Assembly: GCA_020851565.1 (NCBI GenBank)
Contig: JADZCN010000020.1
Span: 2,187 to 66,186, forward strand
Direction of reading: 5' to 3'
Length of the DNA: 64,000 bases
Source: Acidobacteriota bacterium
GTDB lineage: Bacteria > Acidobacteriota > Vicinamibacteria > Vicinamibacterales > UBA2999
The position numbers and the translations under genes are program-made. A model generated the notes under the pieces. That model saw only the letters and a list, made by a program, of their open reading frames with translations, ran no database searches and had not been told where the DNA came from. This document shows positions 26,412 to 57,363 of the stretch, piece by piece (the stretch's first letter is position 1; every line of letters begins with the position of its first letter).

Positions 26412-27851
26412 TCAGACGGCTGGAACCGCCGGTCGCGGCATCTTACCAGCCTCCGTCTCCTCCGGGGTGACCATGATCGCGCCGTTGTCGTTCGCGGCGA
26501 AGACCGCCAGGTCGGACTGGCCCAACAGGCGGCTCGTGACGGTGCCCGCCGTCATCGACCCGCTGACGTTGACGGCGGTGCGGCCCATGTCGATGAGCGG
26601 CTCCACCGAGATGAGCAGGCCTGCCAGCGCAACGGGCAGGTTCAGGGTGGAGAGCACCACGAGGGCGGCGAAGGTGGCGCCGCCGCCGACGCCCGCGATG
26701 CCCACCGAGCCGAGCGTGGCCACCGTCACCACCGACGCCATGAACGACAGCGACGTCGGGTCGATGCCCGCGCTCGGGGCGATCATCACGGCGAGCATCG
26801 CGGGATAGAGGCCCGCGCACGCGTTCTGGCCGATGGTCGCGCCAAAGCTGGCCGCGAAATTCGCAATGGCCGGCGACACCCCGAGGCGCGTGATCTGCGT
26901 CTCGACGCTGAGGGGAATGGCCGCGGCGCTCGAGCGGGACGTGAAGGCAAAGGTGAGCACGGGCCAGATCTTCTGGTAGAACCGCACCGGGCTCAGGCCC
27001 GTCAGCGCGAGGATGGCGGCGTGGACCAGGAGGATGACGCCCATCCCGATGTACGAGGCCACGACGAACCCGCCCAGGTTGATCACATCGTTCACGTTCG
27101 AGGTGGCCACGACCCGCGTCATCAAGGCGAGCACGCCGTAGGGCGTGAGGCGGATGACGATGCGCACGAGGCGCAGGATCAGCTGCTGGAACGTGTCGAT
27201 GCCGTGGAGAATGCGGTCGCCCAGCTCAGGCTTGTCGCGGCGGAGCGAGAGCACCGCCAGGCCCAGCAGGACCGCGAACACGACCACGCCGATCACGGAC
27301 GTGGATCGCGTGCCCGCCAGGTCCGCGAAGATGTTGGTCGGGATGAACGACTGCAGCAGGGAGGGGATGTTGAGCCGGGCCGCCTCGCTCACCTGCGCTT
27401 CGAGCGCCGTGCCGCGCTCGAGCTCCCGCGCGCCCTGGACGAGGCCATCCGCCCGGAGCCCGAAGAGCCGGGTCATGCCGATGCCGATGCTGGCCGAGAT
27501 GGCCGTCGTGACCAGGAGCAGGCCAATCACGCCGCCGCTGATGGCCCCGAGCGCCTTGGCGTTGCCCAGCTTCGTGACCGCCGCCAGGATGGAGATGAGC
27601 ACCAGCGGGGCGATGACCATCTGCAGCAGCCGCACGTAGCCGCCCCCGACGACATTCACCCAGGTCATCGTCCCCGTGACGGTGGCACTGCCGAGCCCGT
27701 AGATGCCCTGCACGGCAGCCCCGAGCACGACGCCGAGGACCACCGCGAGGAGCACGTTGGTGGAGAGCTTCGCGCCCGCCTTCGCCCGGCGGGCCAGCCA
27801 GGCGATGACGGCAGCGAACACGACCACATTGGCAAGCACTGCAAGGTTCAT
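26412..27851 (-). CDS. tcyP: L-cystine transporter-like cation symporter (DAACS family, TcyP/YdjN-like)
   Basis: Near-collinear with E. coli YdjN / B. subtilis TcyP as I recall them: WPVLTFAFTSRSSAAAIPL, FAASFGATIGQNACAGLYPAMLAVM, LLISVEPLIDMGRTAVNVSG. AGGAG lies 5 nt before the ATG. Confidence 0.8.
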   Translation of the reverse strand: MNLAVLANVVVFAAVIAWLARRAKAGAKLSTNVLLAVVLGVVLGAAVQGIYGLGSATVTGTMTWVNVVGGGYVRLLQMVIAPLVLISILAAVTKLGNAKALGAISGGVIGLLLVTTAISASIGIGMTRLFGLRADGLVQGARELERGTALEAQVSEAARLNIPSLLQSFIPTNIFADLAGTRSTSVIGVVVFAVLLGLAVLSLRRDKPELGDRILHGIDTFQQLILRLVRIVIRLTPYGVLALMTRVVATSNVNDVINLGGFVVASYIGMGVILLVHAAILALTGLSPVRFYQKIWPVLTFAFTSRSSAAAIPLSVETQITRLGVSPAIANFAASFGATIGQNACAGLYPAMLAVMIAPSAGIDPTSLSFMASVVTVATLGSVGIAGVGGGATFAALVVLSTLNLPVALAGLLISVEPLIDMGRTAVNVSGSMTAGTVTSRLLGQSDLAVFAANDNGAIMVTPEETEAGKMPRPAVPAV

Positions 27852-27865
27852 ACGCGCTCCTGCGA

Positions 27866-27902
27866 CGAAACGAAAACGGCCCTCCGTGAATCGGGAGGGC
27901 CG
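27866..27902 (-). terminator. intrinsic-terminator-like hairpin in the tcyP leader (attenuator 3:4 element)
   Basis: Minus strand: CGGCCCUCC-CGAUUCAC-GGAGGGCCG followed by UUUUCGUUUCG. It ends about 5 nt before the AGGAG RBS of the transporter. No upstream minus-strand gene for it to terminate. Confidence 0.55.
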
Positions 27903-27941
27903 GAAAGGTTGACGCGCATTGCTGTCACGAGTCCACGTGTC

Positions 27942-28022
27942 TCATGGCGTCGACGCTCCCGGCTTCCTGGACAGGAAGCCGCCGCAACAACAGCAGCCGA
28001 GGACGTGGAGACGGCAGGTCAT
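27942..28022 (-). CDS. candidate Cys-rich leader peptide (26 aa) of tcyP
   Basis: ATG ACC TGC CGT CTC CAC GTC CTC GGC TGC TGT TGT TGC GGC GGC TTC CTG TCC AGG AAG CCG GGA GCG TCG ACG CCA TGA = MTCRLHVLGCCCCGGFLSRKPGASTP. Weak SD. Too short for the ORF track. Confidence 0.4.
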   Translation of the reverse strand: MTCRLHVLGCCCCGGFLSRKPGASTP

Positions 28023-28070
28023 GGAAGCTCTGGCGCGGCCCCGGAACCGGAGTGCCGCGATTCGTCGGGC

Positions 28071-28099
28071 AGTCTAGCCCACTTACCCTGAGATGTCGA
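28071..28099 (-). promoter_or_regulatory. sigma70-like promoter for the tcyP leader
   Basis: Minus strand TCGACA (28099-28094), 17 nt, TAGACT (28076-28071). Predicts a leader of roughly 210 nt. Confidence 0.45.
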
Positions 28100-28165
28100 T
28101 GGGCGGGGCACGGTGTCGCGGCCGCCCGAGCCCGCGCCCCCGGCCCGGTGGTGGCCCCCGCGGGA

Positions 28166-28174
28166 TGGCATAAT
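28166..28174 (+). promoter_or_regulatory. extended -10 box upstream of cytochrome c gene
   Basis: TGGCATAAT (TGn + CATAAT) about 20 nt upstream of ATG 28195. AGGAGG at 28182-28187. Confidence 0.4.
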
Positions 28175-28194
28175 CTCCGGGCAGGAGGCCCGGT

Positions 28195-28650
28195 ATGTCC
28201 ACCGTTCGCGTGCTCGCAGTGTCGGCTGCCCTGCTCGTCACCAGCCCGTTTCTCACGGCCCAGTCGCCCCGCCCCGAAGGGTCGCAGGCCCCATCCGCCA
28301 GTTCGCAGGTCGCCGGGATCGCAGGCAACGTCGAGCGTGGACGCTATCTCGTGGAGCACGTGGCCATGTGCAACGAGTGTCACTCCACGCGGGACGCCAG
28401 CGGCGAGATCATCCCGGGCCGCGAGTACATGGGCGGCAACATCCCGTTCACCCCGCCCTGGCCCAACGACTGGGCGGCTGTCGCACCCCGCAATGCCGGC
28501 CTGCCGGGCTATTCGGACGCGGCGGCCATGCGCCTGCTGACCGAGGGGGCTATCGGGCGGCTGGGCACGCGGCTGCGCGCGCCGATGCCGCGGTTCCGGA
28601 TGAGTCAACAGGATGCGGCGGATGTGATTGCGTTCCTGCGGTCGCGCTAG
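28195..28650 (+). CDS. c-type cytochrome, exported
   Basis: Signal peptide. Single haem motif CNECH. 151 aa. Confidence 0.85.
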   Translation: MSTVRVLAVSAALLVTSPFLTAQSPRPEGSQAPSASSQVAGIAGNVERGRYLVEHVAMCNECHSTRDASGEIIPGREYMGGNIPFTPPWPNDWAAVAPRNAGLPGYSDAAAMRLLTEGAIGRLGTRLRAPMPRFRMSQQDAADVIAFLRSR

Positions 28651-41193: not shown

Positions 41194-41943
41194 TCAGTAC
41201 TTGTAGACGAACGACAGCAGCACGGCCACGTCGTTCTTCTGCACATCGGCCGTGGGCGGCTTGTTCTTGAAGGTGTTGAGCAGCTCGGCCTTGATCTGCG
41301 TCGCGGCGGTCACATTGGCGGCCAGCCCCGCGCCGAAGATGTAGAGCCCGTCCTCGAAGTCGTCCATCTTCCAGAGCGCGCTCACGCGCTGGGTGATCTC
41401 GGCCGTGTCGCTCAGCTTGTGCTTGAAGTTCTGCCCGGCGACCACCGCTCCGTCGGTCTTGACATCGAACCCCGGGTTCTTCTCCCACACCATGCCGAGA
41501 CCGCTGTCGACGGCGAACTCCGTCCGATCGTTCTTCACAAGGAAATGGGAGAGGCCGATCGTCGGGGACACCAGGTAGTCGATCTCCTTGAATTCGTCGC
41601 GGAGGTACTGCGTCTGGCCGAAGAACGACGTCCGCTCGGTGAACTCGCGGTCCACCCGCCCTTCCAACCCGAGCCGGTTCGTCGTGAGCGCTCCCTCGGA
41701 CTCGCCGCGGATGAAGAGGCCGATGCTCTTGAAGAGGACCTTCGATCCGGTGTCGCGCTTGACGTCGTACGCGAGGTTGACCGTGTTGGTGTCGCTATTG
41801 CCCTGCGTCAGGGCGAGGCCGGCGCCAAACGAACCGGTCCAGCCCGGAGGCGGGGCGGGCGGGGCCTGCGCGGCGGCCACGGCCGGAACGACGGCGGCGA
41901 GGAGAAGGGCGAGGCAGGAGGAACGGGGATGAAGGTGCATCAT
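41194..41943 (-). CDS. DUF481-like outer-membrane beta-barrel protein
   Basis: Start MMHLHPRSSCLALLLAAVVPAVAAAQ. GSFGAGLALTQGNSDT. C-terminal LLSFVYKY. Confidence 0.75.
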   Translation of the reverse strand: MMHLHPRSSCLALLLAAVVPAVAAAQAPPAPPPGWTGSFGAGLALTQGNSDTNTVNLAYDVKRDTGSKVLFKSIGLFIRGESEGALTTNRLGLEGRVDREFTERTSFFGQTQYLRDEFKEIDYLVSPTIGLSHFLVKNDRTEFAVDSGLGMVWEKNPGFDVKTDGAVVAGQNFKHKLSDTAEITQRVSALWKMDDFEDGLYIFGAGLAANVTAATQIKAELLNTFKNKPPTADVQKNDVAVLLSFVYKY

Positions 41944-55338: not shown

Positions 55339-57363
55339 CTATTTCCTCACCCCTGAGTACTCGAGCATCTGCGTCGTCAGGTCCATCGGATAGGAGATGG
55401 TGACGTCGGTGATCTGACCGTCCGGCCCCGTGACCGGCGTCAGCTTCGGCATCACGAAGCCGGAGTAGGACGGGAGGTCCAGCTTGTCCACGCGCGCCAC
55501 GACCTCGTCGCGCACCTTGGGGTCGAAGTGTACGCCGTGGGCCTCGAAGAGGTCCCGCGCGGCGGCGTAGTCACCCTCGGACTTGATGCGCTGCACCTCG
55601 GCGAGGAGCCGGCCGACGCCCTCGCGGAACGCGGCTGGATCGACCATCACGAGGTAGGTCTTGCCGTCGCGCGTGCGCTGCTCGATCGCCTTCGTGTTGG
55701 CCATCAGCCACCGGACGATCATCTGCCGGTTGCGCATGTGGTCCTCCTCGATCTGCGTGCCCTCGCGGATGCGGCGCAGCTGCACCAGCGCGTTGCGGGT
55801 GTAGGCCTCGTACTCCGCGCGCACGACGGCGTCGTGATCCGCGGCCGGAATGATGCCCAGCTCCACCAGCTTCGGATCCGCGATGAAGTACAGCCCCACC
55901 AGATCGGCACGGCCCTCCTCGAGCGCGGAGAAGTGTTCCTTGATGAGCGCCTGCGGCGCCGCCTTGCCCTCGGCCTGGCGGCCCGAGGCGTGCCCGATCA
56001 CCTCGTGCATGTCGGTGGTGAGCGCCGAGGCGAATGCCCCGAACTTCGCGGACCGCTCCACTTCCTCGGGCGTCCACGAGAACTCGCCGCGCATGGAACC
56101 CGGCGTGGACTGATCGTACGCCTCGATCACGTTCGACAGCGCCACCGACTTGCTGCCGTACTTCTCGCGGATGGCCTGGTCGTTCGGCAGGTTGATGCCG
56201 ATCGGCGTCACCGGGCCGGAATCCCCCGTCTCCACCACCACGTCAATCGCGTTGGCGACGATGCCCTGGACGCTGGGCTTCCGGTACTTCGCGTCCCACG
56301 GCATGCGGTCCTCGAACCACTGCGCGTTGGCCGCGAGGGTCTTGATGCGGGCCGTCTTCTCCTGGTTCACGTAGTAGACCAGGCCCTCCCAGCTGCCCTT
56401 GATGCCGCGCGGGTCCATGTAGACCTCGATAAATCCGTTGATGGTGTCCACCGGCGAGTCCTTGTCCTGCACCCACGCGATGTCGAACTGCTCGCGATCG
56501 CGCACCTCGCCCGTCCGGTAGAAGCGCACGAGTGACGCCAGGGCCCTGACCATCGGCTCGGGAGCGTACGGCTGCGCGTTCTCCAGGTGCGCGATGATCT
56601 CGCTTATCTGCTTCCCGTACAAGCCGTCGGCCTTGTAGACCTCCTCGACGAGCTTGCCGTTGCGCATCACCAGGCGCGAGTTCAGGCCGTACTGCTCCCT
56701 GAAGCCCTCGAGATCCGCCATCGACACCCCGGCGTAGAGGTTGTTGGCGCTGGCCTGCAGGATGTCCCGGCCCGCCCCGGGATTCTTGTTGGTGACGATG
56801 GGGTCCACGTTCGGGTCGAAGAACATCGGCCCGAGCCGCGCGAGCATGGTATCGAGCGTCTCGCCGGCCGGCGTGGCGAACGTCGCACCCGCGGTCGCCG
56901 AGGCCTTCGCGGCCGCGAGGAAGGCGTCGGGCGTGCACTTCAGCACGAACTTGCGCGCGGTGAGGTTGTTGTAGGGCCCGTTGTTCAGCCAGAAGAGCTT
57001 CGTGTAGCGCTGAATCTCGGCCAGCGTGGCCGGATCCACGCCGGCGGGGTGGGCGACGATTTGGTCCAGCACGCCGCGCATCTCGAGCGCGCTCGGGTGC
57101 TTCTGGTCGATGAAGATGTCGCGTCCCGCCAGGGCGGCCTGGTAGAGGTGCCAGACGAGGATCTTCTGCTGAAGGGGGAGGGAGCTGAACCCGTCCGCAT
57201 ACAGCTGCACCACCGCCGCGTCGTCCACGCGTTCGAGCAGGTACGTGCGGTCCGCGGTGGAGCTGGCGGCAGGAGCGTTGGACGCCGGGAGCTCGGTGGG
57301 CGCCGGGTTGGAGCACGCGGACGCCAGGAGGGCGGCCGCGAGGATGACGGCAGTGACTCGCAT
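55339..57363 (-). CDS. M49 (dipeptidyl-peptidase III-like) zinc peptidase, lipoprotein
   Basis: Lipobox AALLASACS. Zinc motifs HEVIGH and EEGRAD. 674 aa. Confidence 0.8.
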   Translation of the reverse strand: MRVTAVILAAALLASACSNPAPTELPASNAPAASSTADRTYLLERVDDAAVVQLYADGFSSLPLQQKILVWHLYQAALAGRDIFIDQKHPSALEMRGVLDQIVAHPAGVDPATLAEIQRYTKLFWLNNGPYNNLTARKFVLKCTPDAFLAAAKASATAGATFATPAGETLDTMLARLGPMFFDPNVDPIVTNKNPGAGRDILQASANNLYAGVSMADLEGFREQYGLNSRLVMRNGKLVEEVYKADGLYGKQISEIIAHLENAQPYAPEPMVRALASLVRFYRTGEVRDREQFDIAWVQDKDSPVDTINGFIEVYMDPRGIKGSWEGLVYYVNQEKTARIKTLAANAQWFEDRMPWDAKYRKPSVQGIVANAIDVVVETGDSGPVTPIGINLPNDQAIREKYGSKSVALSNVIEAYDQSTPGSMRGEFSWTPEEVERSAKFGAFASALTTDMHEVIGHASGRQAEGKAAPQALIKEHFSALEEGRADLVGLYFIADPKLVELGIIPAADHDAVVRAEYEAYTRNALVQLRRIREGTQIEEDHMRNRQMIVRWLMANTKAIEQRTRDGKTYLVMVDPAAFREGVGRLLAEVQRIKSEGDYAAARDLFEAHGVHFDPKVRDEVVARVDKLDLPSYSGFVMPKLTPVTGPDGQITDVTISYPMDLTTQMLEYSGVRK

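Follow-up and report, generated by a model that had tools for sequence, protein, structure and literature searches.

The gene of the L-cystine transporter TcyP in an Acidobacteriota bacterium is preceded by a leader region that very probably acts as a ribosome-mediated transcription attenuator of the trpL/hisL type, which would sense charged tRNA-Cys and control this importer. Gene and leader lie on the minus strand of a 64,000-nucleotide (nt) stretch of contig JADZCN010000020.1 (assembly GCA_020851565.1); this whole stretch is called the window in the following, and all positions refer to it. The 343-nt gap between the tcyP start codon (ATG at 27851) and a divergent plus-strand gene (start at 28195) contains a sigma-70-type promoter, a short open reading frame (ORF) with four consecutive cysteine codons, a hairpin inside this ORF, and an intrinsic terminator directly in front of tcyP. 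An initial annotation, made from the DNA letters alone, had pointed to these four elements and had read them as an attenuator with Cys as the sensed codon. All four are indeed where it had placed them on the minus strand, and its reading is supported by conservation across two phyla, by the lack of any Rfam match, and by non-homologous leaders of the same kind in front of cysH and other sulfur genes.

Elements of the tcyP leader

The promoter (28099-28071, minus strand) consists of TCGACA (28099-28094) and TAGACT (28076-28071) with a spacer of 17 nt. It is the only promoter-like site between 26000 and 30000, a range in which 0.1 such sites are expected from shuffled sequences, and in all acidobacterial loci the motif TTGAC-N17/18-TAGACT is kept upstream of tcyP, with or without a leader. 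Transcription would start near 28065-28063.

The leader short ORF (sORF1; 28022-27942, minus strand) comprises 26 codons plus UGA and reads MTCRLHVLGCCCCGGFLSRKPGASTP. Its four consecutive Cys codons, TGC TGT TGT TGC (27995-27984), are the candidate sensor. A run of four TGY triplets is expected only 0.045 times per window if both strands are counted, and the surroundings of the only other such run in the window suggest a frame of Leu codons (GTG CTG CTG CTG) in a candidate gene. Cysteine is a rare amino acid in this DNA, as only 96 of the 14,499 codons (0.66%) in the 29 window ORFs with a high G+C content at third codon positions encode Cys, and 85 of these codons are TGC and 11 are TGT. In the Cys runs of the leaders that were found by protein similarity, the proportion is 19 TGT to 11 TGC codons (of 30), which means that the rare codon is over-used there. 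The same 12-nt Cys run occurs in the window and in the loci L001, L081, L245, L002, L251, and L210 with diverged flanks, and the runs of relatives in general have 3 to 8 Cys.

In 11 relatives of the window-type group, the ATG of sORF1 is nearly invariant and lies 7 to 10 codons ahead of the Cys run, the N-terminal residues are variable, and the stretch behind the Cys run hardly changes in nucleotide sequence among close relatives, not even at third and synonymous positions. The variable N-terminus together with the invariant nucleotides after the run indicates that the constraint is on codon identity and on the RNA, not on the peptide, and judged from these sequences the conservation of the leader ORF is the signature of a translation that matters and not of a product that matters. 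The alignment of orthologous leaders, one of the checks proposed in the initial annotation, has thus confirmed the conservation of short ORF, Cys run, and terminator. The same data bear on the idea that sORF1 encodes a functional Cys-rich micropeptide, metal- or redox-active or the precursor of a modified peptide, which would be made together with the transporter. Cys-rich peptides are generally capable of metal binding, and this one has a CCCC. Between groups, however, no conservation of the peptide is seen beyond the Cys run, its residues downstream of the run reflect the arms of the RNA hairpin and are kept at synonymous positions, there is a terminator between the short ORF and the gene, and no modification enzymes are encoded next to it, as the locus is flanked by the genes of a cytochrome c and an ADOP-family permease. 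A functional micropeptide is therefore extremely improbable.

The hairpin inside sORF1, GGCUUCCU-GUCC-AGGAAGCC (27980-27961), is a perfect stem of 8 bp, as initially described, but it begins one codon past the Cys run and not two. It is present in the minimum-energy fold as well as in the RNAalifold consensus, and its helix pairs in 87.5% of the alignment cells, with three pairs that change on both sides. The intrinsic terminator (27902-27866, minus strand) has the stem CGGCCCUCC/GGAGGGCCG (27902-27894 with 27885-27877) with an 8-nt loop; eight of the nine pairs are G-C, the stem energy is -19.1 kcal/mol, and the stem is followed by UUUUCGUUUC, with the U tract UUUUCGUUUCG at 27876-27866. There is no other such site between 26000 and 30000, and in a stricter, home-made terminator scan the hairpin at 27902-27866 was the only terminator-like one on the minus strand of the entire 64-kb window. 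On the plus strand, that window has just two hairpins resembling intrinsic terminators, at 41388-41416 and 56764-56783.

It was considered whether the terminator belongs to an upstream gene of this strand. Upstream, just one long ORF is found on the minus strand (28608-27925, 227 amino acids); its G+C fractions at the three codon positions are 0.81/0.62/0.69, as compared to 0.68/0.57/0.85 in the cytochrome c gene on the plus strand (28195-28650), which encodes a CNECH haem motif. The minus-strand ORF represents the antisense shadow of this gene, and the terminator therefore ends no upstream gene, just as had been assumed initially.

Conservation upstream of tcyP

Loci of tcyP were collected by protein-similarity scans of genome and metagenome collections, in each case with the best 80 matches, which were mostly proteobacterial tcyP genes, so that only few members of the clade were obtained. 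By protein similarity alone, a short ORF with a Cys run followed by a terminator or a terminator-like hairpin was found in 14 of the 23 tcyP loci from Acidobacteriota and Gemmatimonadota, and a Cys-run leader ORF upstream of tcyP was found in none of about 130 proteobacterial loci. The poly-Cys ORF, the hairpin inside this ORF, and a GGCCCUCC/GGAGGGCC terminator recur together upstream of tcyP, and the G+C-rich stem with its U tract is kept in essentially all tcyP leader units. A pattern scan at the DNA level added about 20 further examples from Acidobacteriota and Gemmatimonadota, and wherever the downstream sequence was present, the gene was tcyP. Pattern-scan matches in Streptomyces, Kitasatospora, and Comamonadaceae are not leaders; in the inspected matches from Streptomyces and Comamonadaceae, ordinary genes have TGTTGTTG at their 3' end, where the frame gives a Leu run, and their terminators come next.

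In Gemmatimonadota/Longimicrobia, there are often two tandem Cys attenuator units before tcyP (L007, L009, L021, L093, L094, L200). The two units differ in their sequence type, …CCCxC…GSPxGEAG and …CCRGCxPPPGDA, and each of them has its own terminator or terminator-like hairpin. Other loci have lost parts of the leader. L082, L084, and L085 retain the promoter and have lost the Cys ORF, with a mismatch in the terminator stem of L082 and L084. In L085, region 1 (the 5' arm of the hairpin within the ORF) is joined to the terminator arm by an apparent deletion between TTCC repeats, and the Cys codons are mutated; judged from its sequence, L085 looks like a decayed leader copy and not like an alternative design. 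In L003, an acidobacterial locus, the place of the leader is taken by an array of short TAGGTC/TTAGGAC-like repeats in both orientations, from about -160 to -60 relative to tcyP.

The leader does not belong to a described RNA family, as a covariance scan of positions 27500-28500 on both strands against Rfam 15, which had been proposed in the initial annotation as well, gave no relevant match at E-values up to 10. What matched was noise (microRNA, lncRNA, and a SorX fragment), and a known RNA family was rejected as an explanation.

Alternative pairing of the leader RNA

In most units, the leader RNA can be divided into the classical four regions. Region 1 (27973-27980) is the 5' arm of the ORF hairpin, GGCUUCCU, and would be covered by a ribosome that has its A site on the third or fourth Cys codon. 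Region 2 (27944-27968), the 5' strand of the antiterminator as derived from stalled-ribosome folds, consists of AGGAAGCC (27968-27961), which is the 3' arm of the ORF hairpin, and of GGGAGCGUCGACGCCAU up to the stop codon. Region 3 (27894-27919), the 3' strand of the antiterminator as derived from folds and alignment, comprises the 5' arm of the terminator (27902-27894) together with the conserved spacer AUGCGCGUCAAC, and region 4 completes the terminator.

For the comparison of leaders, the units were folded up to the terminator loop with the nucleotides masked that a ribosome would cover (A site on a Cys codon, downstream reach of about 12 nt); ribosomes reach about 12 nt past the first base of the A-site codon. 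In 26 of 27 partly homologous units, which belong to four to five sequence types from two phyla, the stalled fold has the 5' arm of the terminator paired to a stretch 10-28 nt past the Cys run. This partner segment mimics the terminator 3' arm, being GGAAGCCG in the window, AGAGGGCC in the L004 type, and GGGAGAGGC in Gemmatimonadota, and in most units it doubles as the 3' arm of the ORF hairpin. With the ribosome stalled on the last Cys codon, the pairing probability of the 5' arm ranges from 0.16 to 0.94 in individual units and has a mean of 0.81 if refined boundaries of the Cys run are used; with the ribosome at the stop codon, the mean is about 0.4. The folding of stalled versus stop-codon states, likewise a proposal of the initial annotation, is thereby in line with an attenuator. 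When shuffled versions of region 2 are compared, pairing of the 5' arm in the stalled state before region 4 exists is 0.81 as observed versus 0.64 for the shuffles; it is above the shuffle mean in all 27 units, and in 22 of the 27 at least 95% of the shuffles are less stable than the alternative fold.

An alignment of 11 sequences (A1) gives the same picture. The 1:2 hairpin together with the terminator pairs in 89.8% of the cells, as compared to 41-62% when the partners are slid against each other, the terminator alone pairs in 91.9%, and the antiterminator pairs in 79.1% versus 37-48% with slid partners. Independently of this, both the 1:2 hairpin and the terminator come out of RNAalifold.

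In the window, the stalled-ribosome fold pairs 27967-27965 with 27896-27894, 27963-27956 with 27906-27899, and 27951-27944 with 27919-27911, which corresponds to the helices GGA:UCC, GCCGGGAG:CUUUCCGGC, and a 'clamp' GACGCCAU:AUG-GCGUC. The pairing in the clamp helix accounts for the conservation of the spacer AUGCGCGUCAAC, which is kept even in L082 and L084 that have no sORF1. By eye, only a weak 6-bp pairing of CGGGAG with CUCCCG had initially been seen as a candidate antiterminator. This pairing is real insofar as it represents one register, but as the entire antiterminator it was rejected, since it is part of a longer conserved helix of 27967-27944 with 27919-27894 that is not just weak. 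That the exact pairing is the one given here for the window is rather probable.

The end of sORF1 is part of the same structure. Most of region 2 would be hidden under a ribosome that has reached the UGA stop (27944-27942), as its footprint would extend over about 27959-27930. The ORF ends with Pro-UGA (CCA or CCG UGA) in 16 of 20 acidobacterial units and with UGA in 19 of the 20 (27947-27942 in the window). Pro-UGA is a slow-termination context and could hold the ribosome on region 2, or it could merely belong to the clamp helix with the downstream AUG, in which the CCAUGA nucleotides also pair.

Cys leaders before cysH and other sulfur genes

Short ORFs with Cys clusters are not restricted to tcyP. 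Among 65 loci of cysH, the gene of the PAPS/APS reductase, from Planctomycetota, Gemmatimonadota (Gemmatimonadales), and some Acidobacteriota, about 58 have such an ORF ahead of the gene, and most of these ORFs are followed by a detectable intrinsic terminator. The cysH leaders are not homologous to the tcyP leaders. In L254 (of the loci L254-L319), for instance, the leader is found about 160 nt ahead of a gene that starts at 1201; one of these leaders reads ...CCACCRCCCRTGQGGAT*. In more distant cysH loci, a convincing Cys leader was found in none of 14, and in the window itself no other Cys leader and no cysH gene was found. In most of the 49 scorable cysH units, the partner of the terminator arm is found about 15-35 nt past the Cys cluster, straddling the stop codon, and in 43 of the 49 the observed pairing is above that of shuffles.

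The pattern scan also found unrelated Cys-run leaders with terminators in other phyla. Besides the leader of a PAPS reductase gene in Planctomycetota, these precede genes of a luciferase-like monooxygenase in Balneolaceae, a sirohaem synthase in Flavobacteriales, a DUF4395 protein in Bacteroidota, an ATP-grasp protein in Saprospiraceae, and a candidate binding protein without Pfam match in Eremiobacterota (the loci of the monooxygenase, ATP-grasp, sirohaem synthase, binding-protein, and DUF4395 leaders are, as a set, L187, L171, L218, L237, and L194). The geometry of the 2:3 pairing is common to five of the six leaders from other phyla. That one and the same design is found before two non-homologous gene families of cysteine supply is the strongest argument for cysteine being the predicted signal.

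Proposed mechanism

If the leader works as an attenuator, RNA polymerase would start at the TTGAC-N17-TAGACT-type promoter, and a ribosome would translate the 26-codon leader ORF. With plentiful cysteine, the ribosome would pass the four Cys codons, reach the UGA, and cover about 27959-27930, the 1:2 hairpin (27980-27961) would re-form behind it, and region 3 would remain free, so that the 9-bp terminator (27902-27877) could form during transcription and the polymerase would halt in the U tract, 5 nt before the Shine-Dalgarno sequence of tcyP. When Cys-tRNA is scarce, the ribosome would stall at 27995-27984, thereby covering region 1 and leaving region 2 (27968-27944) naked. Region 2 would then pair with the newly made region 3 (27919-27894) and sequester the 5' arm of the terminator, which would result in read-through into tcyP.

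A number of points weigh against this mechanism. There is no leader in 9 of the 23 orthologous loci, and three of the leaderless loci (L082, L084, L085) retain a terminator-like hairpin without the short ORF. As the compared units are partly homologous, their counts overstate their independence. For the window alone, pairing of the 5' arm is 0.77 versus 0.69 in shuffles, of which 33% are as high, and this difference is not significant; its fold energy is borderline when compared to shuffles (p ~0.05). The terminator has a probability of at least 0.90 in every modelled ribosome state at thermodynamic equilibrium, and even if no ribosome is present, GGGAG:CUCCC and the clamp helix are predicted to form as a partial antiterminator. 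Finally, the ATG of sORF1 in the window has no Shine-Dalgarno match of at least 4 nt, a weakness that had been mentioned from the beginning and that stands, and it lies 48 nt downstream of the -10 box.

Some of these points define the mechanism more precisely. With the terminator at 0.90 or above in all ribosome states, switching at equilibrium is rejected, and the switch can therefore only be kinetic, with the antiterminator forming first. According to published helix energies, the trp terminator likewise is more stable than its antiterminator. The partial antiterminator predicted without a ribosome implies that the untranslated state may terminate less strongly than in trp. Given the missing recognizable Shine-Dalgarno sequence and the distance from the -10 box, the initiation of translation is the weakest link of the proposal. 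In relatives, the start differs in this respect: L081 and L090 have AGGA or GAGG before the leader start, and in the L004-type group and in Gemmatimonadota the Cys short ORFs have near-leaderless starts. The short ORF of the window is leadered, not leaderless, as can be seen from the position of its ATG behind the -10 hexamer.

A weak or absent Shine-Dalgarno sequence, the three orthologous loci with a terminator-like hairpin but no short ORF, and the thermodynamic dominance of the terminator in all states would also fit a constitutive or factor-dependent terminator, responding to some protein or being part of a ligand-binding RNA, with an untranslated and incidental Cys ORF. This is nevertheless very unlikely, because the in-frame Cys run is the one feature common to leaders whose RNA sequence is otherwise unrelated, including the two tandem tcyP unit types, the cysH leaders, and the leaders from Bacteroidota. 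The Cys run moreover tracks cysteine and sulfur genes specifically, there is no match to an Rfam family, and L085 resembles a decayed copy rather than an independent design.

A possible second upstream ORF and the question of translational control

Downstream of sORF1 there is a possible second upstream ORF (uORF2; 27919-27848, minus strand), which reads MRVNLSGPPDSRRAVFVSSQERV, although its status is uncertain. It runs through the terminator, and its UGA overlaps the AUG of tcyP (AUGA). In the window-type group, the start, the frame, and the overlapping stop are kept across indels of 21 and 33 nt. The ORF is found in the window, L081, L002, L201, L207, L251, L089, L082, and L084, and loci of the L004 type have a different uORF of 19 codons after the terminator that has the same AUGA ending. 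A conserved uORF2 peptide was rejected, as the substitutions are not biased toward third positions. The overlap, as read from the sequences, suggests a translational relay into tcyP, but the units of Gemmatimonadota have no uORF2.

These data relate to the question whether the ribosome on the leader controls the start of tcyP translation instead of transcription, as in mycobacteria, either by masking of the Shine-Dalgarno sequence or by a relay from sORF1 via uORF2 to tcyP, with the hairpin being secondary. In favor of translational attenuation or coupling, one can mention that uORF2 with its AUGA overlap is kept in start, frame, and stop despite the indels, that the Cys short ORFs of several relatives are near-leaderless and in this resemble those of mycobacteria, that the mycobacterial precedent is experimentally established, and that leader genes near structural genes have been proposed to promote reinitiation, Acidobacteria included. 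The AGGAG of tcyP, however, is outside the terminator stem and not clearly sequestered, uORF2 is missing in the units of Gemmatimonadota, and nearly every unit keeps the G+C-rich stem and its U tract, which the unrelated cysH leaders have too, with terminator-like hairpins being otherwise very rare in the window. A purely translational mechanism is thus unlikely to be the main one, and translational control might come on top of transcription attenuation instead of replacing it.

Another element of the leader is a G+C-rich stem-loop CGCGGC...GCCGCG (28034-28059, minus strand) between the presumed start of transcription and the codon that begins the short ORF. It appears in the minimum-energy fold as well as in the centroid fold, and L081 has a hairpin with a different inner stem at the equivalent position. 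It is possible that this stem-loop serves as a stabiliser or as a standby site.

The gene downstream of the leader

The tcyP gene (27851-26412, minus strand) encodes a predicted L-cystine symporter of the sodium:dicarboxylate symporter family with 479 amino acids and has the Shine-Dalgarno sequence AGGAG at 27861-27857. The protein matches PF00375 (E = 1e-98), and its homologues carry the name L-cystine uptake protein TcyP. With enterobacterial proteins it shares 54-57% identity over almost its entire length, and the DNA of one of these enterobacterial loci (L076) matches the gene that is annotated as tcyP, cystine/sulfocysteine:cation symporter, in 5,424 Escherichia coli genomes. By sequence, the downstream gene is thus a true TcyP-family transporter and the orthologue of E. 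coli tcyP, with cystine as predicted substrate, which agrees with its first description as a TcyP/YdjN-like symporter. Judged from its closest relatives and from the ADOP-family permease encoded next to it, the window belongs to Acidobacteriota, probably to Vicinamibacterales.

Three of the related contigs (L001, L002, L207) are titled 'uncultured Bifidobacteriaceae' in public records although they are clearly acidobacterial, which is probably a labelling error. Their TcyP proteins are 78-94% identical to that of the window, and L001 shares also the flanks with the window.

Relation to known systems

The attenuators trpL, hisL, pheL, thrL, leuL, and ilvL of E. coli and Salmonella have a leader ORF with a codon run, mutually exclusive 1:2, 2:3, and 3:4 helices, and a terminator before the structural gene. 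Which of the helices forms depends on where the ribosome is, and of terminator and antiterminator the former has the higher stability. The element of the window resembles them in its leader ORF with a codon run, in the 1:2/2:3/3:4 layout, and in the terminator just before the gene, but it is predicted to sense cysteine and to control an importer instead of a biosynthetic operon, and it is found in Acidobacteriota and Gemmatimonadota. It furthermore has no sequence or Rfam relationship to the classical attenuators, its ORF has no clear Shine-Dalgarno sequence, and its partial antiterminator is expected to form without translation. To our knowledge, there is no classical attenuator for cysteine. 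In the searched literature, which leaves out most subscription journals so that absence is no proof, no terminator-type Cys attenuator and no leader peptide of tcyP or cysH was found.

Cys codons in leaders are known from actinobacteria. In mycobacteria, leaderless polycysteine short ORFs sense Cys-tRNA, and several such loci constitute a 'Cys ribulon' (Canestrari et al. 2020, 10.1101/834739; Mol Microbiol 114:93). There, stalling of the ribosome exposes the Shine-Dalgarno sequence of the gene that follows, no intrinsic terminator is involved, and the authors contrasted this with terminator-based attenuation (Canestrari et al. 2020, 10.1101/834739). A paper from 2026 still refers to the mycobacterial polycysteine short ORFs as translation attenuation. 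Like these short ORFs, the element of the window has consecutive Cys codons upstream of a cysteine-related gene, and some of its relatives are near-leaderless. Unlike them, it is leadered, has a conserved terminator and antiterminator, belongs to another phylum, and shows no sequence similarity. Already earlier, leader peptides with Cys runs were predicted upstream of cys and cbs operons of Actinobacteria, and as no conserved terminator hairpins were found, a Rho-dependent termination was proposed (Seliverstov et al. 2005, PMC1262725). Those candidates are, like the present one, comparative-genomic predictions of Cys-run ORFs before cysteine genes, but at tcyP a Rho-independent terminator and a competing helix are conserved.

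Two other types of regulation should be mentioned in this context. The Cys-specific T-boxes of Firmicutes sense the charging of tRNA-Cys and choose between terminator and antiterminator before genes of cysteine metabolism or transport. They bind the tRNA directly by a large conserved RNA and do not need translation. The predicted sensed quantity is the same for the leader described here, but there is no T-box match in the window by Rfam. In E. coli and B. subtilis, tcyP is under the control of CysB and CymR, respectively, which are DNA-binding factors that act at the promoter, with induction when sulfur or cysteine is limiting. Target and logic would thus be the same as in case of the attenuator, but that control is protein-based.

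No description seems to exist of a terminator-based Cys attenuator that acts on an importer and is found repeatedly, in several poorly studied phyla; at the same time, the mechanism is, as deduced here, of the textbook kind and not categorically new. With slight preference, the element can be regarded as one member of a widespread class of terminator-based cysteine attenuators, for which the name 'Cys attenuon' may be used. This class would include at least five phyla (Acidobacteriota, Gemmatimonadota, Planctomycetota, Bacteroidota, Eremiobacterota) and would act on tcyP for cystine import, on cysH and sirohaem synthase genes for sulfate assimilation, and probably on organosulfur scavenging. 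The proposed elaborations within the class are tandem units, rare TGT codons as sensors, the Pro-UGA stop, and a second uORF that is coupled to the structural gene.

Biological implications

In the literature known to us or searched, the documented Cys leader ORFs are only actinobacterial, have no terminators, and act on translation, and the leaders described here would fill this gap with a classical attenuator for cysteine. They permit a natural comparison of transcriptional and translational read-outs of one poly-Cys sensor, and they could supply a compact cysteine-responsive part for synthetic biology. The combination of a Cys-run short ORF with a terminator offers a simple signature by which cysteine and sulfur regulons as well as unannotated short ORFs can be annotated in metagenome-assembled genomes. 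If the proposal is true, ribosome-sensed cysteine attenuation would be evolutionarily recurrent in several major soil and aquatic phyla whose regulation is barely known.

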